NCBI GenBank assembly: GCA_000165345.1
Contig: CM000435.1
Location: 1-64,000 of the forward strand
Direction: 5' to 3'
DNA length: 64,000 nt
Shown here: positions 1-53,330 of the stretch, in pieces
Position numbering within the stretch: position 1 is the first letter of the stretch
Layout: every line of letters begins with the position of its first letter
The notes under the pieces: generated by a model
What the model was told of the DNA's origin: nothing
What the model saw: only the letters and a program-made list of their open reading frames with translations
Databases searched by the model: none
Translations under genes and position numbers: made by a program

Positions 1-419
1 AAGTAATTACAGGTACTTTTTATTCTCTTTCAAAAGTTCTATCATCTTTTCCCTCACGGGTACTTGTTTGCTATCGTTTTCTCATCAATATTTAGCTTTG
101 GATGAAATACCCCACCCCATTATATACTCCATTCCCAAGGAATATGACTCTTTGATAGTAAACCGTATGTGAATTAAAATAAAATATAGACGGGACTTTC
201 ACCCCTCTATGGTGGTTTATTCCAAAACACTTAATTTTATTAATTCACTGGCATTACTTCTAGATACTACAAGTCAATAATAAAATAAAATTATTATTGA
301 TTTTCATGTTGAGCTTTTTCCTGTTCACTCGCAGTTACTAAGGAAATCCTAGTTAGTTTCTTTTCCTCCACTTAATAATATGCTTAAGTTCAGTGGGTAA
401 TCTTACTTAATATCAGGTC
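1..419 (-). rRNA. Large-subunit (28S) rRNA, 5' end only; gene continues beyond window start
   Basis: rc of 396-419 = GACCTGATATTAAGTAAGATTACC, then ...CACTGAACTTAAGCATATTATTAAGTGGAGGAAAAGAAACTAACTAGGATTTCC: conserved LSU 5' domain. Confidence 0.85.
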
Positions 420-929
420 TTTTATTAATATTATTGTATTAAAAATACAAGAAATAAACGTCTTTTTCCTATAAAAAAAAAAGATGATATAGAATATATA
501 TATATTAATATTAATAATTATATATTTAAGAACCCATTGATAGACGGATTTCCGTATCAAATTAAGGGTAAATATAATTATTAAATATTAAAATATTCTA
601 TACTTGCGTATATTTTTTTTTTTTGTATTTTAATAATTACATTTATTCCAAAACTTTATAATATATTATTTTATATATATAAAAATATTATAAAATTTAA
701 TTTTAACTTAAATTGGTTAAGAAATTTATATATAAAAGAAATATGTTATTTTATATGTTACCTCTAATTTTATAATAAGTAAATATAAATACAAAAATTT
801 CTCTATTTTCTTACCAATCATTTACATAATATAATAGAAATTATAAAGAATATATATATATATTTATATATAATATATATATTTTCTTTAAAAAAAACAT
901 TATATTATATGAAGTAGTTAATAGACACT
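420..929 (-). other. ITS2 (AT-rich internal transcribed spacer between 5.8S and 28S)
   Basis: Lies between recognisable 5.8S and LSU 5' end; AT-rich, (TA)n tracts; boundaries approximate. Confidence 0.6.
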
Positions 930-1072
930 GATATAAATATAGTAATGTAAATTACTGCTATTTGCGTTGAGAGATCTGATTGTTCATAGAATTATGCAGT
1001 TCACATTGCTTATCGCACTTTGCTGCGTCCTTCATCGTTATGAGAACCAAGACATCCATTACTTAAAGTGTT
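930..1072 (-). rRNA. 5.8S rRNA
   Basis: rc of ~1020-1072 reads ACTTTAAGTAATGGATGTCTTGGTTCTCATAACGATGAAGGACGCAGCAAAGTGCGATAAGCAATGTGAACTGCATAATTC: universal 5.8S core; 3' boundary approximate. Confidence 0.75.
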
Positions 1073-3330
<2,258 letters not shown>

Positions 3331-4300
3331 ACTATCATTCATATTAATAATATGTGTTATATATATATATATATATAATATATACAAATATATACATGTA
3401 ACATATATATTATATATATTATATATCATATATAATATACATATTATTAACATTGAATACATTTATGTCTATTATTTATAATAAACAAAAGAATTATTTA
3501 AGAAATCATTAATGAATATATATTATTTATACAACATATATATACATATAATATATAAACTGTATAAAAATATCATAAAAATTTCTTATCCAGTTAATTA
3601 ATAAGAAAAATATATTAATTTAACTAGCAATTTAAGATAGTATTAAAACTACATTGAAAAATACCCCATAACCTTGAATATAAAGTAATAATAATATAAT
3701 AATAATAATAATAATAATATATTATAAAAAATTATTACTTTTTCTTTTCAACAATGGTTACGAAATATTCCAACATTGTACGCTCCCAAAACACCATTAT
3801 ACAATAATATATATATCATATATATACATATAAATATATATAAACAACATAACCACTATATATAACAATGTAGAGTCATACATTAATACTTATCACATAT
3901 AATTCTTTGGAAACCATAATAATACAACAACCTCTTATATTTAACATTCGTGTAAATATCAATTCAACACATATTGTCAAAATTGACTACACTAAATACA
4001 CTACATTTACAATCAAATATAAAACAACGTTATATTTCAATCGTAAAAACATGTATTTACCTGCGACTCATATATTATACATTACTCATCTATAATATAT
4101 TTCTCTCATCAGTACTAATCATTCCATAGCCTTTTCAAATCGAAATAGACTACAAATTTTTAATACTCAATGTCAGCTCACTACTAACACGTCAGTTCCT
4201 ACATTCCCAGGTTGAATACTCTTCACCCCGGAAAAAATATTTTTTATTATTTTTTTATTTTCACTATGTTACACCGCCCACTTTTTTTTTTTTTTTTTTT
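3331..4300 (-). other. rDNA 5' external transcribed spacer / promoter-proximal spacer (extent uncertain)
   Basis: Immediately upstream (on minus strand) of the 18S 5' end; AT-rich with (TA)n and (ATA)n tracts, T20 homopolymer at 4283-4302. Confidence 0.4.
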
Positions 4301-4414
4301 TAATTCTAATACTTTATTTATTATATTATTATTTTACTTATAAATTTAGCACTTTGCTATTTAAAATATTATTCAACATTCCATTAAAAAAAATTACTTT
4401 ATGAAAAAAAAAAA

Positions 4415-4712
4415 TCAAGTATAAAAAATCCAAGTGCAAAAAAAATTCAAGTGCAAAAAAACTCAATCCAAAAAAACTCAATCCAAAAAAAATCAAGTAT
4501 AAAAAATTCAAGTGCAAAAAAACTCAATCCAAAAAAAATCCAAGTACAAAAAAAATTCAAGTGCAAAAAAAAACAATCCAAAAAAACTCAATCCAAAAAA
4601 AATCAAGTATAAAAAATTCAAGTGCAAAAAAACTCAATCCAAAAAAAATCCAAGTGCAAAAAAAATTCAAGTGCAAAAAAAAACAATCCAAAAAAAATTC
4701 AAAAATTATTTT
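4415..4712. repeat. ~110-bp tandem repeat (2.7 copies) built from A-rich sub-motifs CAAGTGCAAAAAAA / CAATCCAAAAAAA, in rDNA upstream spacer
   Basis: TCAAGTATAAAAAATTCAAGTGC recurs at 4415, 4493, 4603 (period 110); direct reading of sequence. Confidence 0.85.
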
Positions 4713-4740
4713 TTCAACATTCAAGTTAATGCCATTCTTT

Positions 4741-4960
4741 ATCTAATTATCTCTCATTTCCTATTCTGCTACTCTCATCACCATTTCTCCTCCTATGAAT
4801 ACTCTACTACTATTCTACTTATCTTCTCCACAACCACCCCTATCCTCATCCTCTTCTAAACTCTTTCTTTCCACTACCTCTCTCCACTTTCACTATATTC
4901 ATATCTCTGTTCTTATTCATCCCATTCATCTCCATATCTTTAACTATAATCATCTTCTAC
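4741..4960. repeat. 220-bp polypyrimidine (CT-rich, almost G-free) strand-asymmetric tract
   Basis: Plus strand has only a handful of G in 220 nt (CTCTCATTTCCTATTCTGCTACTCTCATCACC...). Confidence 0.8.
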
Positions 4961-6843
4961 TTGAAAAAAAAAAAATAATTATCTATAAATATTGAATATC
5001 TATATATAAAATGTTATTTACATATTTCACCAAATTTACTTATATATTTCGTCTTTGTGAAAATATATTGTATAAATTTGAACTCAGTATAAACCAACTA
5101 CTTTGACTCTTCATACCTCTAGTAAATATTTATTAAATTAATTTAAAAAAAAAAATAATTCACAACTTTTATATAATAAATATTAGTTTTGTCCATTAAA
5201 ATATTAGATCAGATAAAATAAAAGCTTAACATATTATTATTCCATTTCTAAATAAATTAAAGGTTTGAATTTCTCGTCGAAAACTATAATAATACGACTA
5301 AATATCATCAAGAACCCATGTAAAATAATAACTTAATAAATTAAAATATCTGATTTTTCTTCTCCAAAATGGAAAATGTAAAATGTAAAATTAATAAATT
5401 CAATATTAAGAAAAACTGAGCACAGAAAACTAATTATTTCTGCAACTATCCATTCTATGTGCTATTATAACGATATTTTCACACTTGAATTTTGCATTAC
5501 ATTTTTTTTTTGAAGACTGATTGCCAGAACAATCTATTATTTTTTTTATTCAAAAATACGATTTTATTTAAATATAATTAAATAATAATTCTATTGTTTT
5601 AAATCCATTATACCTATTTTTTATTTTACATGAATATTTTTTAAACTGATATTTTAAAGTAACTGCGATCGCATTTATAAAATATCATATCAACATTAGA
5701 CTAGATAGATTTACTATTAATAGATAAATAGATATACTTCTAAATAACTAAAATTTATATTAATATTCAAAATTGTGATATTTTATTTGCGATATCACTA
5801 TATTTTTTGGTAAATTTTTGTTTATTTTGCTAAAAAAAAAAAAAAAAAAAAAAAAATATACAACAAATTTGCTAATGATCACCCTCAAAAGAAAAAAATG
5901 AAACTTCCCTGAAAAAATATTGTTGTCTGATTAAACTTTGATGGTACAACAGAATAATAAAAAATCCAGGCAGTTATGTTTATTTGCATTTATTAAGAGA
6001 AAGATATATATACAAAGAAAAATTAATAACGGCACGTTAATTAATAGAATATATCGATTCTTTTTAAAATGACCAGCTCATTTCCCACAAAAAATGAGTT
6101 TAGATAATATATTGTAAATCGAAATATTCCCTTTATCAAGAAGTTATGAACGTTTCTAAATTTTTTTTTAATATTTTTTTCAAACACATTAAATCAATGA
6201 CAAAATATTCCCACAATTATTCAATAAAGAATCTTGTATTTTTCATTCAAATCAATTTTTGATTATAAAAAATTATTTGAAAATAGGGTAGAAAAAAAAA
6301 ATAAAACAAGTTTCATGTAATTATATATCCCACTCAAATATGGAGATAATAGAATATCACTAGCTTTATTTTATAACCCATTTAACTGCCATATTTTTAA
6401 CCTCAATTCATAATTTTTTCGGCAGTCAATATCCAAGATCATGGCAGTAATTCTTTTATATAATGAATTAGACCAATTGCTTTCGAGTGCTTCTTTGTAT
6501 TATAGCTTGATTAGAATACATTTCAAGCTAAATATGTCACTAACTGAACAAAATTAATAATATTAAATAAATTATTAATTTTGCAGTTAATTGAATAAAT
6601 ATCTGCAGTATTTGGAATTTAAGTATTCATCGGAAACATATGCACGCAGAATAACACTTCACAATATTTACGTAAAATTAGCTTTATCTCTGTGACTTCT
6701 TTAGTTATTATCAAGTAATATTTTCAACCAATCATTAAAAACTGCCTCAAGGTATTTGCAATAAAAAGATTTTGAAATTTGTTATTTAACAAACAATCTG
6801 ATTAATCCATGAAAAAAAATTTCACCCTTGATTTTTTCAATGC

Positions 6844-9270
6844 TTAATCAGATTGCTCAAGAATATCGTTCAAATCATATTTATCCAAACTTGCTGCACT
6901 TCCCGAAGACGAGCTACCACCCATCGATGTAGGGGCGTTAAGCAGCATTGGTTCTTTACTAGATCCTCCTCTAGCGCATCTTGAGCCAGAGCCATCATAA
7001 GTCACTTTTGATGCCATCTTTGCTCCACTTTCTCTGTTCCCCGACCGTTCTCTATTCCTTGATCGTTCTCTGTTCCTTGATCGTTCTCTATTCTTTGATC
7101 GTTCTCTGTGTGATGATTGTCCTCCATGTCCTCCATGTCCTCCATGTCCTCCAGTAAAGTGACTGCTACGATTATCATTGAGAGAAATTTTTAGTGAAGC
7201 AAGTTGTTCCTCTAGATTACTAGCTTTTCTACTTTCATAATCTCCATCTCGACATACTACTTCTACTCTTCGGCGCGGTCTGTGAGTGCTATGACTACTA
7301 TGATCTTCAATTTTGAGTTGAGGCCTTGTAGTCTTTGGTCTAACTGAAGGGTCTGGTCCAAGTTGCCTCTTCGATTCCCCCCCATCCACTGTAGGGCTAT
7401 ATAGAACAGGCTTCTGAATGCTTTGACGCGCTTCTGAACATAAATGGGGGATGGATACATGGGGTTTAGTATCATCTGACGTATCACCAGTTTGTAAAGG
7501 CCTAGGATGCTTCGTTGAATGTGATCTAGAAACTGCAGTATTTCTTGTTCTTGGAAATCTTTTAGATGGCACATCTTTCGTTTTAAAGTTTTGAAGCTGC
7601 ATTAGCCCTAATTGATGTGCAAGTGGAAACTTGGAAGATTCCGGAGAACTAGGTCTTTGAATTTTTTTAGTTTTACTCATTTCTGATTTATCAGGTGATT
7701 TCATGCAAGGCTGCTCAACCGGCTCTTCACGTATTTTTTTTAGATCCGCTAAACAGAGTTTTTTCTTTTCTTGAGGTCTTTTAATGAAATCTTCTGTACA
7801 GAAAAGTTCCTCATCTGTGCTTATATCCTCAATATCTAACTCTTGTAGAGTAACTCTAAGAGGAAGACTAAGAATACTTTCTAAATTCTGTTTTCGTACT
7901 ACAAAATCTTTATTAGTCTTAAGTGGAATTGGACACAAATCTCCAGGATTTGGAATATAACCACACGGTAAATTGATTTTGGGAAGTGCCTTTTTCTGCT
8001 TTTTAGGTAGCTCAATTTCACATGAAGGTTGAATTGAACTATCAGTTGATCCACGATTATCCCTCATAGCACAAGGCCTACATACACAAGTTCTACTGGA
8101 AAATTTATCACTCGTACATGTGCAGACTAATGAACTAGTAGTTTCTTTTTTGTCACTAGTTCTAAATACTTTAGAAATTCCTCTAAGTTGTTGATATTGG
8201 TTATAGCCGCTTTGTGTAGCTGTGGGACCACCAGAATCACCACCTGAATCACCGCCTGAATCGCCTCCTGAAGCACCACCAGAGGCACCACCTGAAGCAC
8301 CACCAGAATCGCCGCCCGAATCGCCACCTGATGCACCACCTGATGCACCACCTGATGCACCACCTGATGAGCCACCAGGCAGATAAGTTTTCATTTTCTC
8401 GAAATATTCATCGTAACGTTCTTCATCTGAAGATGAAGAAGAAGTATCATAACCTCCTGAAGAGAGAGGCAGCCTTGATTTTGCATACGAAAGAAATTGT
8501 TTACAATTTGGATTTGCTTTGAGAATAGCTTTAATAAGGCTTTTAATTGCAGTTTGACAGAATACAGCAAGCCTGTACAAATTGAATGTTAATCTCGAAA
8601 GGCAAAGTTTTAAAGTTGTTAATTGATCAGCTCTCTTGATAATTTTCTTTATTTTGGAATTTTTTCTAAATAGTATTTCAAGAGTTTGGGTTACATAAGA
8701 CTTTTCGAATTTACTTTCAGAGAGCGGAGCTACATGATGTCTGGAAGCGTTTGGATCAAAGTCTTTAAGCATTGGAGTAGAAAATCCAGGGAACTCCCTT
8801 TCACATGATTTTCTAACATAGACGGATACTATTGCTTGATTTTCTAATGAGAGTTGAGCAATTTCATTTAAAACAATGTCTCGTATGCCTTCTAAGTCAA
8901 TATCTGACTCCTTAAAATATGTAAATAGGTATGTAAGTAAAGTTTTAAATTTTACATAAATATATTTAACTTTAACAAGAAGGCTATGTAACTTAAGACA
9001 AGAAAATGTTTTGAGCAACTTCTCTTTGCATGATCGTTCTTCTGGATGTGAAACAATTCCATATTTTGCTCTGGTATCAACAGGAGATTCTGATAAGTTT
9101 GAACCATTAATTGAAGATATCGAGAATATCAATGCAAATAGAAATAGTAAAAGAATCCTCATACTAATTCTAATAGCATTAGCGGAAATTTTAATTCCTT
9201 TCTCATAATATTTATCTTCGTTCTCAAATTTTTTTACTAATTTTAGATTTAACAAGTTAATTTTAGACAT
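6844..9270 (-). CDS. Low-complexity Gly/Ser-repeat protein (GGxSGG x9, GHGGHGGHGG, RERS(K/R)N x4), hypothetical; probable true start at internal Met (9162) giving a signal peptide
   Basis: 808-aa ORF; residues 37-60 MRILLLFLFALIFSISSINGSNL look like a signal peptide; E2F-like TGGCGCC box at 9284-9291 sits only 13 bp from the first ATG but ~120 bp from Met37. Confidence 0.75.
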   Translation of the reverse strand: MSKINLLNLKLVKKFENEDKYYEKGIKISANAIRISMRILLLFLFALIFSISSINGSNLSESPVDTRAKYGIVSHPEERSCKEKLLKTFSCLKLHSLLVKVKYIYVKFKTLLTYLFTYFKESDIDLEGIRDIVLNEIAQLSLENQAIVSVYVRKSCEREFPGFSTPMLKDFDPNASRHHVAPLSESKFEKSYVTQTLEILFRKNSKIKKIIKRADQLTTLKLCLSRLTFNLYRLAVFCQTAIKSLIKAILKANPNCKQFLSYAKSRLPLSSGGYDTSSSSSDEERYDEYFEKMKTYLPGGSSGGASGGASGGASGGDSGGDSGGASGGASGGASGGDSGGDSGGDSGGPTATQSGYNQYQQLRGISKVFRTSDKKETTSSLVCTCTSDKFSSRTCVCRPCAMRDNRGSTDSSIQPSCEIELPKKQKKALPKINLPCGYIPNPGDLCPIPLKTNKDFVVRKQNLESILSLPLRVTLQELDIEDISTDEELFCTEDFIKRPQEKKKLCLADLKKIREEPVEQPCMKSPDKSEMSKTKKIQRPSSPESSKFPLAHQLGLMQLQNFKTKDVPSKRFPRTRNTAVSRSHSTKHPRPLQTGDTSDDTKPHVSIPHLCSEARQSIQKPVLYSPTVDGGESKRQLGPDPSVRPKTTRPQLKIEDHSSHSTHRPRRRVEVVCRDGDYESRKASNLEEQLASLKISLNDNRSSHFTGGHGGHGGHGGQSSHRERSKNRERSRNRERSRNRERSGNRESGAKMASKVTYDGSGSRCARGGSSKEPMLLNAPTSMGGSSSSGSAASLDKYDLNDILEQSD
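7043..7108. repeat. Coding 21-bp minisatellite (x4, RERS(K/R)N) plus adjacent 9-bp x3 (GHG) at 7119-7152
   Basis: gatcgttctctRttcYttgat repeated; ggacatgga x3. Confidence 0.8.
8227..8375. repeat. Coding imperfect 18-bp minisatellite (~9 copies, GG(A/D/S)SGG)
   Basis: ccaccTgaWKcRccRcc units read directly; antisense shadow ORF 8127..8375 (HQVV repeats) is the same repeat. Confidence 0.8.
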
Positions 9271-48786: not shown

Positions 48787-49227
48787 TTACTCATGAATGA
48801 GCTCTTCTGGTGATTCTTCTAAATATCTCATTCCCTTACTATAAGTTACTGGAACATAAACATTAGGTTCAGATTTTGTAACTGGCACATACATTTGTGG
48901 TGGGGAAGGGTTTCCTTTTGCATAGCCAACTGGAACATATCTCATTTGCTGTTTTTGAGGTACTACATAGGTGCTTTTTTCTGGAACTGTATACATTACT
49001 TTCTTATAGCTCTTTGCTGGTACATATTGTACCTTTTGCATATATACTGGCTCATATACAGTGTTATATTGGCCTTTTCCATACAATCTTCTTAGGTTAG
49101 TTTCCTCATTTGGAATGCTTGTTTCATTTATTGAATTTTCGATCGAAATATTTTCTCTTTCCTCACAACTTATTAATCCAATAAGTAAACCAACAATAAT
49201 AAATATTAACCTCATATTTCCTATCAT
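48787..49227 (-). CDS. Small secreted protein with (Y/M)YVPV tetrapeptide-type repeats
   Basis: Signal peptide MRLIFIIVGLLIGLISC; repeats YVPAKSY/YVVPQK/YVPVGY/YVPVTK/YVPVTY. Confidence 0.6.
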   Translation of the reverse strand: MIGNMRLIFIIVGLLIGLISCEERENISIENSINETSIPNEETNLRRLYGKGQYNTVYEPVYMQKVQYVPAKSYKKVMYTVPEKSTYVVPQKQQMRYVPVGYAKGNPSPPQMYVPVTKSEPNVYVPVTYSKGMRYLEESPEELIHE

Positions 49228-49612: not shown

Positions 49613-50949
49613 TCATTTTTGTAGATTTTTACAAACTTTTTCGATAGAGGAGCTCAGATTTGTGAATGATAGCTTGCAAGCTTCTAAAGTCTTTTCAATT
49701 TCAATTTGTTGCGATTCCATAACTAAAGGAAAAATTGATGTTAAAAATTCATGATATAATTTATTCGAAAACGCTTTAACCTTACCTGTGAGCCTTGAAT
49801 TAATTGTAGAGACATCCTGATGTAAAACTTTCAAAAGTTTTAGTCTTTCCAATACAAATGGTAGTGCTGCGCCGGTACATTTCCATTTCTGAATGATATC
49901 ATAAAGTTTGGTAATTTGTGTAGAGTCAGTTTCATTAAACAAAGAATCATTAAGGTCCTTTCTCTTCTTGTTAAGTTGTTCAATCGATGTGGATAATGCC
50001 TAAAAGAACATAATTTATTAAATTAAATTATGAATAAATTCGTTCGCTTCTTTGATTATTAAGATCAAAACCTACCTGCACTCTTCTAAAAATTCCTTCT
50101 AGTCTATTTGTATCCAGGAGTGAAAGTCTTTGAGAAATGTTGTGTATTGCACTTTGAATATCAGAATATGGCATTTCCGAAAGCCGGTCGACACCTATTC
50201 TTGACTCTACTTCATAAACCCTTCTCTCCAGCTCTAACAGATTTTTCAAATCAAGAATGCTTTCCGAATTATCTTTCATGCATTCAATAGATATCTCTAT
50301 TTCCTGTTCTTTATCTTCAACTCCCTCTCCTGAGGTGCTTTTACCTACACTATTTATATACTGAAAAAATTTGTGTTTTTTGCTTTGATCATCAAATTAA
50401 ACTTACGTTTGAAAGCTCATCAAGTAAATCTTTTGTTGTAAAACTTTGCTGTTTTAGTGTATCTAAGGAACTCATTGAGTTCTCTAATGACTTTTGTTTA
50501 TCAATCAGACTATTTAAGTTGTTCTTAATATCTTCAATATCGGATAATAGCGATGTTGAGTCATTCAAAAGTGCAACATTAAAACTTTTGCTCAATTCAT
50601 GTTCCCCCTTCTTAATGGTCTCATAAGCTTTTACAGTATTTTCTATTTCAGAAATCTCAGATTTTATACGAACCAATGAACCATTCACATCTTCACTGCT
50701 CAGTGTAGTTCCCTTTAATCTATTTAATTTAATATTCTCATCAGTAGATAAAGCTTTAATTAATTTTAAATAGTCTGTTTTCACTAATTCCCCATTAATC
50801 ATCTGTTCATTGCTTTGTACTATTCTTCTATATGATTTCAATACGGAAGAATTATCATTTGAAAGAGAATTTTCATCGTTTTGAGACTCTTGCTCGTTCC
50901 TATTCTCCGGATCATATTCAAATACGGTATCCTCTGTGCCCCTTATCAT
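49613..50949 (-). CDS. Coiled-coil protein, possibly dynactin subunit 2 (dynamitin/p50)-like, 3 exons: join(50407..50949, 50076..50360, 49613..49999)
   Basis: GTAAGT(50406)..TTTTTTCAG(50361) and GTAGGT(50075)..TTCTTTTAG(50000) keep three listed ORFs in frame (~404 aa, size and heptad character of dynamitin; N-term TVFEYDPE resembles p50). Confidence 0.55.
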
Positions 50950-51251
50950 TTTGTGTGCAGCAATTATAGATCAAATTATAGACAAATCCTTTAATCAAAA
51001 GCTCAAAATAACTATTTCAAACAATCATCTGCCTTCCAAGAACTGTTTTGATTTAATCTTTATTTATTCCTCTTATTTCTTTGCCCCTATTATGCAATTT
51101 TTTCCCTAAATAAAAATCAAAACAAAAAAAAAAATAAATCCAATTTCCCGCCCAAAATTATAATTACGTTCAAGCCTTTCCAATTTAATATAAAGCTAAA
51201 TTTGTTTGTTCAAAAGTGAAGCTGTGATGTAAAATATTTTATTCTCTGGAA

Positions 51252-52310
51252 ATGCTTCTAAGAGTTTTGTTTCTCGTTGTTTTCCTTACTTGCTTATACG
51301 ATCTTAGGGTTTTTTCTGCTCATCCATATAAGTCTATCGTAATTCACGAGGTGGAAGAGTCCGTCATTGAAGAGCAAATTAGAGCAGCGAATCGTATTGC
51401 TTCCGTTTCTACAGACTCAGTCTCGCTACCAAGTAAACTGTCTGCATATAATTACTGCAAAACTCTCTCTAAACTGGTAGGATCAAAGTATCACTGGGGA
51501 GATGTTTCTTATACTTGGCAAAAAAGATTTAGAAGATTTGGCTACTGGGTTTGCTTTAGAGATTGTGGAGGAGGGGGGGACTGTCTTTATAATTCAATTA
51601 TATCATCTTTGAATCTTAGTAATACTAGCGTTTCTATGCTTAGAAGGCTAGTTGCAGATCAATTTGTGGGTATTAACACTACATCATTATATAGTTCCGA
51701 TGGAAATACAAAAACTTCGAATATTGAGAATATAATTGATGCAAGTGGAGAAATTTTAAATACCTTAAATTATAATAATACTGCTCATCCCAACTCTAAT
51801 TCGAATTCCAACTATACAGATCTTTTAAGTAATTGGAACGAAACTACTTACTTAGAGAGAATGGAAGTTCTTGCTACAACAGAAGCATTTGGTGACTGGA
51901 AAGATCTATGGTCTCCTTCAAGCATACTAAATAGCAATTTTCAGTATGGAACAGATATATCCACAAACATTAAAAAAGCACTTTTGGTACACAAATTTTT
52001 GTCCAAACCAGGAAATACCCATTGGGGAGCCCAATGGGATGTAAACTATATAGAGAAAATCTATAATGTCAAAGTTATAATACTATGGAAGAATAGAGGA
52101 ATCTTTTACCCTACACTTGGAGATCAAGTGGATTTCACAAAAATTGTTTTAATTTATTACGATGATGCTATAGGGCACTTTCAAGTAATTGGACTTAAAA
52201 AAATGAACTCACCTCCTAAATCTGACTTAATTTCAGTGTTCAGTAAGGAAAAAATCCCTACTTCACTCAAAAAATTATATAAAGATGATACAAACAACGA
52301 TTTAGACTAA
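51252..52310 (+). CDS. OTU-like cysteine protease (putative deubiquitinase) with N-terminal signal peptide
   Basis: FRDCGGGGDCLYNSI (OTU Cys-box, cf. DGNCLF) ... DDAIGHFQVIG (His-box); N-terminus MLLRVLFLVVFLTCLYDLRVFSA hydrophobic. Confidence 0.55.
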   Translation: MLLRVLFLVVFLTCLYDLRVFSAHPYKSIVIHEVEESVIEEQIRAANRIASVSTDSVSLPSKLSAYNYCKTLSKLVGSKYHWGDVSYTWQKRFRRFGYWVCFRDCGGGGDCLYNSIISSLNLSNTSVSMLRRLVADQFVGINTTSLYSSDGNTKTSNIENIIDASGEILNTLNYNNTAHPNSNSNSNYTDLLSNWNETTYLERMEVLATTEAFGDWKDLWSPSSILNSNFQYGTDISTNIKKALLVHKFLSKPGNTHWGAQWDVNYIEKIYNVKVIILWKNRGIFYPTLGDQVDFTKIVLIYYDDAIGHFQVIGLKKMNSPPKSDLISVFSKEKIPTSLKKLYKDDTNNDLD

Positions 52311-52331: not shown

Positions 52332-53330
52332 TTAATGTTTAGTACTAAGCAATGTGATTTCAAAAACTAAGTCGGCATTCTTGGGTATTACAGGAGGACA
52401 TCCTCTTGCACCATATCCTAGTTTTGAAGGAATGAATACTCTTCTAGTTTCTGTTACTATCATTCCCTTAACTCCCTGATCAAATCCAGGAACTACCTGT
52501 CCGCTTCCAATAGTAAATGAAAGATTTCCACTATCAAACTTTTTGCCGGTTTTTGCTAATCTACCTTCATATTTAACATTAACTTTGCTTCCTACTAGAG
52601 CAATCTGAGGAATATCTGATTTCACATTCTTTGAAATAGATAAAACTTCATATTTCAATCCATTTGGAAACTCTTTCTTGAATCCTGGAGAAATAATATC
52701 ATTCTGAACGTTCTTTATGTCTTTTGTCAAAGCAGAAGCTTTTTTTTTATCTTCAGCCTTTACTTTTTCTATTGTTTTGATAACTTTTTTCCCACCTTTC
52801 TGTGGCTCTTTCTCTGAAGCTGTTGATAATGAATCAGACTCTGATTCTGAATCGAAATTTTTCATTTCAATATCCTCTACTTGCTTCTCTGATTCATCAC
52901 CTTCAAGTGAAGAAATTTCAGATTCTTCATCATCAGAATGGTTAGCTTCACAGCATCCATCTTCACAACAGTCTTGCACTGGTAGATTTGCAATGCAATC
53001 AACTACACCACTTCCTTTACAGTACAATGTTGAGCCTGTCGGAAATTCTTGTTGATGAATACATGCATTTGGTTGAGACTTAGTTACTGTCGCTACGATT
53101 AAATCGTCCTGTGGATATCCCTGATCGGTTGGAAACTTGACATATACACTAACTTGAGTACCTTCTGTTAATGTAATATGTGACAAGGTTAAGCCAAATT
53201 CGCTGAACTCAAATTTATTATTGTTCTTTGAACCCTTTGTTGACAAAGTAAATCCGATTAACTTAAACATTTTACTTAATTTTCCTAGAAATTTCTCTAT
53301 CAGTTTATATAAACTTAACTCTAGGGCCAA
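52332..53330 (-). CDS. Nucleoplasmin-like FKBP-type peptidyl-prolyl cis-trans isomerase (Fpr3/FKBP39-type); likely start at Met21
   Basis: C-terminal FKBP domain VKYEGRL..GKKFDS...FTIGSGQVVPGFDQGVKGM..GETRRVFIPSKLGYG; acidic Ser/Glu/Asp linker; N-terminal NPL-like beta region. Confidence 0.85.
   Translation of the reverse strand: MALELSLYKLIEKFLGKLSKMFKLIGFTLSTKGSKNNNKFEFSEFGLTLSHITLTEGTQVSVYVKFPTDQGYPQDDLIVATVTKSQPNACIHQQEFPTGSTLYCKGSGVVDCIANLPVQDCCEDGCCEANHSDDEESEISSLEGDESEKQVEDIEMKNFDSESESDSLSTASEKEPQKGGKKVIKTIEKVKAEDKKKASALTKDIKNVQNDIISPGFKKEFPNGLKYEVLSISKNVKSDIPQIALVGSKVNVKYEGRLAKTGKKFDSGNLSFTIGSGQVVPGFDQGVKGMIVTETRRVFIPSKLGYGARGCPPVIPKNADLVFEITLLSTKH

Follow-up and report, generated by a model that had tools for sequence, protein, structure and literature searches.

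An OTU10-family cysteine protease with a predicted signal peptide in plastid-less Cryptosporidium parvum

On which side of a membrane, and on what, would an OTU-like protease with a hydrophobic N-terminus act in Cryptosporidium parvum? The question is raised by an open reading frame (ORF) at 51252..52310 (+) of the first 64,000 nucleotides of contig CM000435.1 (assembly GCA_000165345.1), the stretch referred to here as the window. An initial annotation of this stretch, made from the letters and their translations, had read the ORF as an OTU-family cysteine protease with an N-terminal secretory signal, and as a candidate deubiquitinase exported to the host cell or the parasitophorous vacuole. 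The reading that we consider probable is that it encodes an OTU10-family pre-protein, composed of a signal peptide (residues 1-22), a linker (23-67) and an OTU domain (about 68-352) interrupted by an insertion (143-194), which would enter the endoplasmic reticulum (ER) and serve as a lumenal thiol (iso)peptidase on a route to granules.

The ORF is intact, beginning at the first ATG past an upstream stop and running for 352 codons to a TAA stop, and its product is an exact match to EAK90517.1 of C. parvum Iowa II (UniProt Q5CZ16, "OTU domain-containing protein"). Four C. parvum assemblies carry the same 352-aa gene model, and 21,059 bp around the gene are identical in two of these, CP141124.1 among them. 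The FKBP_C gene on its 3' side (52332..53270, -) is CpFKBP-34, that is cgd7_210 (Q5CZ15 / XP_628215; PMC11357558). Given the Q5CZ16 match, the adjoining cgd7_210 and the position of the C. hominis orthologue about 46.5 kb from the start of chromosome 7, the ORF is very probably cgd7_200 of C. parvum chromosome 7, and we use that name below. The gene is already catalogued, in UniProt as OTU domain-containing and by Wilde et al. 2023 as the counterpart of TgOTU10 of Toxoplasma gondii, so the finding itself is not new. The features on which the argument draws are as follows.

51252..52310, + strand: complete single-exon coding sequence, from the ORF list; very probably cgd7_200 / Q5CZ16
51252..51317, + strand: predicted cleavable signal peptide, residues 1-22, with n-region MLLR, hydrophobic (h-) region V5-Y16, c-region DLRVFS and cleavage at VFS|A
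51318..51452, + strand: poorly conserved, net-acidic, predicted-disordered linker, residues 23-67; predicted local distance difference test score (pLDDT) below 50 at residues 16-64, low conservation in the Cryptosporidium alignment
51453..51677, + strand: N-terminal part of the OTU domain, residues 68-142, with the W82/W89 motif and the catalytic helix
51555..51599, + strand: Cys-box FRDCGGGGDCLYNSI with the predicted catalytic Cys111; start of the Pfam OTU match, G109 and C111 invariant in 24 family members
51678..51833, + strand: Cryptosporidium-specific Asn/Ser/Thr-rich insertion, residues 143-194; a BLASTP gap opposite TgOTU10 and Chromera, pLDDT below 50, relaxed constraint
51834..52307, + strand: C-terminal part of the OTU domain, residues 195-352, with helices, the central beta-sheet and a conserved C-terminal helix ...YKDDTNNDLD; pLDDT mostly 66-87
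52020..52028, + strand: H257-W258-G259, equivalent of the OTU 'WGG' loop; W258 and G259 invariant, aligned to EWGG of the Kupe virus OTU and SWGG of Otu1
52161..52193, + strand: His-box with the predicted catalytic His309 and Gln311 at His+2; H309 and Y302 invariant and F310 nearly so, aligned to THFDAL (viral OTU) and IHYDSL (Otu1)

The three stretches on which the initial annotation relied are all present in the translation: the N-terminus MLLRVLFLVVFLTCLY at residues 1-16, the Cys-box FRDCGGGGDCLYNSI at residues 102-116 with the codon of Cys111 (TGT) at 51582..51584, and the His-box DDAIGHFQVIG at residues 304-314 with the codon of His309 (CAC) at 52176..52178. Searches of PDB sequences with the single protein or with a profile confined to Cryptosporidium gave no match at E <= 10. 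A profile built from 24 family members matches the Kupe virus OTU (E 3.2e-5) as well as Otu1 (E 7.3e-5), aligning GGGDC(111)L with GDGNCF, H(257)WG with EWGG/SWGG and H(309)FQ with HFD/HYD; within the Cys-box, GGGGDC(111)LYNSI is aligned to GDGNCFYHSIA of the Kupe virus OTU and to CLFHAIA of Otu1. Cys111, His309, Trp258, Gly259, Gly109, Trp82, Asp263 and Tyr302 are invariant in the 24 members, and the best profile stretches to all the distant relatives map to residues 195-352. The OTU profile of Pfam (PF02338; clan CA cysteine peptidases) is matched at E <= 1 by 9 of 11 Cryptosporidium orthologues (best E 1.2e-5) and at E <= 0.01 by 8 of the 24 family members, and a precomputed match is on record for the C. 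ryanae orthologue only. The AlphaFold2 (AF2) model has the three-dimensional fold of an OTU domain, with a helix predicted at residues 111-120, from the catalytic Cys onward, and its fold matches include wMelOTU, Legionella LotA and Ceg23, nairovirus OTUs and the OTU-like polyprotein proteases of tymoviruses (4a5u, 7mia). A structural match to the split OTU PF3D7_1350500 of P. falciparum has been reported as well. These data support the prediction that the cgd7_200 product is an OTU-fold cysteine protease; we make the assignment despite a sub-threshold Pfam score for the protein alone because its relatives match Pfam and because the family profile matches solved OTUs. The OTU assignment of the initial annotation is supported, by the alignment of Cys111 and His309 to solved OTUs and by the homology to TgOTU10 described below.

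Yeast Otu1 and human OTUD2 (YOD1) (PDB 3by4, 4boz) align with cgd7_200 through the His-box and the WGG region at E 7.3e-5, but at 15% identity, and they differ in being cytosolic partners of p97/Cdc48, in having UBX-like and zinc-finger domains and Asp at His+2, and in having no signal peptide. The Cys-box of the nairovirus Kupe virus OTU (6oar) is aligned with that of cgd7_200 residue for residue.

The N-terminus has the appearance of a cleavable signal peptide, rather than of an anchor or an organellar presequence. Its uncharged hydrophobic core comprises 12 residues (V5-Y16) between R4 and D17, with a single basic residue ahead of it, and its Kyte-Doolittle hydrophobicity of 2.88 is the second highest N-terminal value among the 24 ORFs of at least 140 aa in the window. 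The core is followed by V-F-S|A at residues 22/23, which obeys the -3/-1 rule and is found at an equivalent position in most orthologues; annotators call the C. canis orthologue a signal-peptide protein, and residues 2-20 form a detached helix in the AF2 model. No second segment near membrane-span hydrophobicity was found in the 352-aa protein, and no K/HDEL ending was found at its hydrophilic C-terminus; a second membrane span, ER retention and a glycosylphosphatidylinositol anchor (the last on account of the hydrophilic C-terminus) were rejected on these grounds. An h-region of 12-22 residues stands at or near the N-terminus in 26 of 27 family sequences (25 of 26 distinct proteins), the exception being a Besnoitia gene model, and its carriers include all the Babesia members, Chromera and the alternative T. 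gondii gene model. The secretory signal claimed by the initial annotation therefore stands, resting on the 12-residue core, the VFS|A site, the lack of any other hydrophobic segment and the family-wide h-region, and as judged from sequence an OTU protease that enters the secretory pathway is well supported. Since the hydrophobic N-terminus is family-wide, ER entry would be ancestral to the family and no novelty of Cryptosporidium. Four N-x-S/T sequons (N124, N142, N187 and N196) are kept in 7-9 of the 11 orthologues, which fits lumenal exposure of the domain; N187 and a further sequon, N175, lie inside the 143-194 insertion and N196 two residues past its end. We give this conservation little weight because the protein is Asn-rich and the genome AT-rich.

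The family to which cgd7_200 belongs was delimited by an exhaustive profile search over 1.84 billion representative proteins, which returned 70 relatives. Those that could be named are coccidian (Toxoplasma, Hammondia, Besnoitia, Cystoisospora and Eimeria), piroplasm (Babesia microti, B. bigemina, B. divergens, B. duncani, B. gibsoni and Theileria orientalis), or belong to C. muris, to Cardiosporidium (two paralogues) and to the free-living phototroph Chromera velia. About 40 are weaker matches (E 1e-13 to 1e-3), mostly short and without a signal; one of these, a perlecan-like protein of cod, was set aside as due to chance or low complexity. The Cryptosporidium matches among the representatives form this one orthologue group only (P0003, with P0019 of C. 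muris), and a word-indexed homologue search with the family profile added nothing, there being only Cryptosporidium and Babesia among the matches listed.

The profile reaches the TGME49_268690 cluster at E 2.4e-31, and by BLASTP cgd7_200 is 28% identical to TgOTU10 (E 1e-29) over residues 82-351. The two proteins share homology across the whole OTU domain, including the GGxGDC Cys-box, the HWG loop, the HFQ His-box and Gln at His+2, and each has a hydrophobic signal ahead of the domain. They differ in that TgOTU10 has 577 aa (475 in an alternative model) with some 190 residues, basic at their start, between the hydrophobic segment and the domain, whereas cgd7_200 has a 45-residue acidic linker and a 52-residue Asn/Ser/Thr-rich insertion that TgOTU10 lacks, and in that Cryptosporidium has no plastid. 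The data on enzyme activity come from TgOTU10, cgd7_200 being known here from its sequence. On this evidence cgd7_200 is a clear homologue of TgOTU10 / TGME49_268690, the type member of an OTU10 family found in apicomplexans and chromerids, and we take it as the orthologue that represents this family in Cryptosporidium; Wilde et al. 2023 (PMC10038098) named it the structural orthologue of TgOTU10. In the same work TgOTU10 is the earliest-branching, apicomplexan-specific OTU; it was assigned to the apicoplast by hyperLOPIT, has a CRISPR fitness score of -2.47, is labelled by the probes Ub-PA and NEDD8-PA, and has been given a proposed role in the import of proteins into the plastid (PMC10038098). 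The occurrence of the family in free-living Chromera and in every sampled apicomplexan lineage means that OTU10 predates parasitism and was not invented as a host-directed effector.

As a separate observation, the closest relatives outside Cryptosporidium are JGI metagenome proteins (P0020 and P0088-P0091; E 3e-37, 36% identity, 327-338 aa) that are encoded on environmental contigs of 2-3 kb and have a signal peptide followed by a short basic linker. They probably come from an unsampled alveolate lineage near Cryptosporidium or the gregarines.

Within the genus, at least 11 other species or lineages carry an orthologue. Orthologues of 345-380 aa were found in C. hominis, C. meleagridis, C. tyzzeri, chipmunk genotype I, C. 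ubiquitum, C. canis, C. felis, C. ryanae, C. bovis, C. muris and three other assemblies; identity in the Cryptosporidium orthologue alignment runs from 96 to 47%, and the C. muris orthologue, which came from the profile search, is about 35% identical. The order WD40, 146-aa ORF, dynamitin, OTU, FKBP, Ran, RNase PH is the same in C. hominis, C. ubiquitum and C. bovis. We estimated the ratio of nonsynonymous to synonymous substitution rates (dN/dS) by the Nei-Gojobori method in pairwise comparisons with C. hominis and with C. ubiquitum. Against C. hominis dN/dS is 0.29 for the whole gene, 0.14 for the OTU core and 0.95 for residues 143-194; against C. ubiquitum it is 0.12 for the core, 0.31 for the linker (residues 23-67) and 0.59 for the insertion (143-194). 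The OTU core is under strong purifying selection, and cgd7_200 is a real, conserved gene and no chance ORF.

Where, then, would such a protein go? Cryptosporidium has no apicoplast, and the default secretory route of apicomplexans leads to secretory granules. In the mechanism that we favour, the cgd7_200 product would be translocated co-translationally into the ER with removal of its signal peptide, its OTU domain would serve as a thiol (iso)peptidase in the lumen of the secretory system, away from the cytosol, and its most likely destination would be the default route into secretory granules, since there is no plastid, no basic transit-like linker, no membrane anchor and no ER-retention ending. 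By analogy with TgOTU10, which is labelled by Ub-PA and NEDD8-PA, its substrates may be Gly-Gly-terminated ubiquitin or ubiquitin-like linkages. Relatives that have a plastid would send the protein to the apicoplast, and in them a long linker comes after the signal. The net charge of the first 40 residues past the h-region is -3 in C. parvum, compared with +5 in T. gondii, +6 in Chromera and +6 in B. divergens, and the 45-residue linkers of the intestinal Cryptosporidium species have net charges of -4 to 0. The linker of the C. muris orthologue (P0019; about residues 25-122) is unlike the short acidic linker of the intestinal species, being 98 aa long, Lys/Asn-rich and of net charge +12, a difference that may be compositional or may reflect different sorting.

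Several points weigh against this reading. The signal peptide was judged by hand-made rules, not by SignalP. The Pfam check proposed for the initial annotation formally fails: the C. parvum protein alone scores 16.8 bits (E 0.01), below the gathering score of 23.3, over profile positions 2-63 of 128 only, which is the Cys-box half. The Asp or Asn expected at His+2 is Gln311 in C. parvum and Gln in most family members, Asp being found at this position in four Babesia species (B. bigemina, B. divergens, B. duncani and B. gibsoni); TgOTU10 likewise has neither Asp nor Asn there, and the residue is not always essential (Wilde et al., PMC10038098). The AF2 model is of medium confidence, with a mean pLDDT of 62 and 70-87 in the core. 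The relation between linker charge and the presence of a plastid is a trend and no rule, as the linkers of B. microti and B. duncani are neutral or acidic. Ubiquitin is not known to occur in the lumen of the ordinary secretory pathway. Finally, cleavage of di-ubiquitin by TgOTU10 is weak, being seen after 24 h (PMC10038098).

The locus thus presents a paradox, on which Wilde et al. 2023 did not comment as regards the retention of OTU10 without a plastid: an enzyme whose Toxoplasma orthologue is assigned to the apicoplast, and putatively serves plastid import, has been retained, strongly constrained and with its predicted ER signal, by a parasite without a plastid. Such retention implies either that the family has a job in the secretory system that is independent of the plastid or that the enzyme was redeployed in Cryptosporidium. 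The first, if true, would argue against the idea of a plastid import-deubiquitinase; the second, if it took place at the host interface, would mean that an organelle-import protease was turned into a host-directed effector, the first OTU deubiquitinase of a eukaryotic parasite to be secreted by means of an ER signal.

Release toward the host is the alternative that survives best, although we regard it as unlikely. It holds that the protein leaves dense or small granules for the vacuole, the interface or the host cytosol and there strips host ubiquitin, NEDD8 or ISG15 from host or vacuolar proteins, in the manner of bacterial and viral OTU effectors. A signal peptide with no retention signal, no anchor and no plastid to go to is what such a protein would have. 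Validated small- and dense-granule proteins of C. parvum do reach the vacuole, the interface or the host (PMC12688253), and PMC13607938 contains a secondary citation of C. parvum hyperLOPIT data that, in ambiguous wording, links cgd7_200 to small-granule or dense-granule clusters. TgOTU10 reacts with human-type ubiquitin and NEDD8 probes (PMC10038098), and the structural neighbours include the pathogen OTUs wMelOTU, LotA, Ceg23 and those of nairoviruses. These pathogen OTUs (Wolbachia wMelOTU, 6w9o; nairovirus; Legionella LotA/Ceg23) work outside the cytosol of their producer, as the initial annotation had proposed for cgd7_200, and their action on host ubiquitin or ISG15 is demonstrated, but they travel by type IV secretion or are made by a virus within the host cell, and have no ER signal peptide.

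Against host release stand the presence of the family in free-living Chromera and in all sampled apicomplexan lineages, the assignment of the Toxoplasma orthologue to the apicoplast and not to dense granules, and the purifying selection on the core of a gene that lies in a conserved housekeeping neighbourhood and belongs to no subtelomeric effector family. A regular-expression search of the N-terminal region found no PEXEL, TEXEL or MEDLE2-type motif, and the sole RRL, at residue 131, falls inside a helix that is conserved in the OTU domain. The link to granules comes at second hand and in ambiguous terms, and cgd7_200 is not among the validated secreted proteins in the 2025 review PMC12688253; no further mention of it was found in the supplements of the other papers searched, and the gene's other accession numbers gave no literature match. 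No test made here supported the part of the initial annotation that placed the enzyme in the host cell or vacuole acting on host ubiquitin, and that part is doubtful. It is still harder to credit the full sequence of events in which Cryptosporidium, its plastid lost, kept the OTU10 enzyme minus its transit-like targeting and came to release it from granules at the host-parasite interface, there to remove ubiquitin, NEDD8 or ISG15 from conjugates of the host.

Another possibility, a processing protease of the lumen with no action on ubiquitin, strikes us as improbable too. Like the OTU-type polyprotein proteases of viruses, it would cut behind a Gly-Gly-type motif, either in the parasite's secretory cargo or in a ubiquitin-like fold, and this would be a conserved, plastid-independent function of the family. 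Such a role would account for a catalytic domain predicted to lie in the lumen, where ubiquitin is not expected, and for the purifying selection that maintains the gene in a plastid-less genus; TgOTU10 barely cuts di-ubiquitin (PMC10038098), and the polyprotein proteases of tymoviruses (4a5u, 7mia) are among the fold matches. The labelling of TgOTU10 by Ub-PA and NEDD8-PA, on the other hand, implies an S1 site that accepts ubiquitin-like C-termini, no candidate substrate was identified, and such an enzyme has no known precedent in Apicomplexa.

That the hydrophobic N-terminus is instead a signal anchor or a mitosomal presequence, with no cleaved signal peptide, is very unlikely. The orthologues of C. 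felis and T. gondii are annotated as "putative transmembrane protein", and the h-regions of some relatives reach 18-22 residues; the 12-residue core of C. parvum is too short to span a bilayer and is followed by a small-residue -3/-1 site, and the segment is uniformly hydrophobic rather than amphipathic and Arg-rich. Even if it were an anchor, the positive charge at the N-terminus predicts a lumenal OTU domain. The notion of an inactive pseudo-enzyme, decaying as a relic of the lost plastid's import machinery, would suit an apicoplast-assigned orthologue in a plastid-less genus and a His+2 that is neither Asp nor Asn, but can hardly be reconciled with family-wide invariance of Cys111, His309 and the WG loop, a core dN/dS of 0.12-0.14 and an ORF that is intact and syntenic in the Cryptosporidium species examined, including gastric C. 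muris. A lumenal OTU10 enzyme on the granule route thus remains the account that we prefer.

The gene should also be distinguished from CpOTU of C. parvum (Ju et al. 2014; XM_001388292.1), an otubain-like protease with shown isopeptidase activity. Both are OTU-superfamily cysteine proteases of the same organism, but the published description of CpOTU gives it a C-terminal extension of 217 residues and no signal peptide, and its accession series is unlike that of cgd7_200 and cgd7_210. Identity of the two was rejected on architecture and accession; set apart by its description, CpOTU appears to be a different gene.

Some observations concern the immediate flanks of cgd7_200. Its stop codon (52308..52310) and that of the convergent cgd7_210 (low end of the coding sequence at 52332) are 21 bp apart, so that the two transcripts must overlap or end within a very short space. 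On the other side, the 302-bp divergent intergenic region between the dynamitin and OTU genes holds an E2F-like site, TTTCCCGCC, at 51144..51152, a candidate that may be a cell-cycle-type promoter element. The dynamitin gene upstream (49613..50949, -) shows as three ORFs of 109, 83 and 185 aa and is split by the gene callers of some assemblies. As assemblies call dynamitin as one product of 383-404 aa, it is a multi-intron gene; the Cryptosporidium genome is intron-poor. Beyond it, at 48787..49227 (-), lies a 146-aa ORF whose N-terminus (MIGNMRLIFIIVGLLIGLISC) exceeds all others in the window in hydrophobicity and whose body is rich in Tyr, Val and Pro, with YVPV and MYVPV repeats. It has no Pfam match on record and looks like a small secreted tyrosine-rich protein; C. 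hominis, C. ubiquitum and C. bovis have syntenic counterparts of 146-149 aa.

The 64-kb window contains no tRNA genes. Its first part (1..6843), which lies about 41-48 kb from the chromosome end in a telomere-to-telomere assembly, holds no ORF of 180 aa or more. Its GC content lies between 0.23 and 0.33 (in the first 6 kb, between 0.23 and 0.30), and its GC skew is -0.43 at 4001..6000. It also contains a (TA)n tract at 3358..3447 and, at 4407..4698, an A-rich tandem array with a period of 110 bp and 97% matches. Next to it, at 6844..9270 (-), an 808-aa ORF carries tandem repeats of GGAS/GGDS (8227..8367) and of RERS(R/K)N (7030..7109). With a hydrophobic stretch close to the N-terminus, it looks like a low-complexity, possibly secreted protein.

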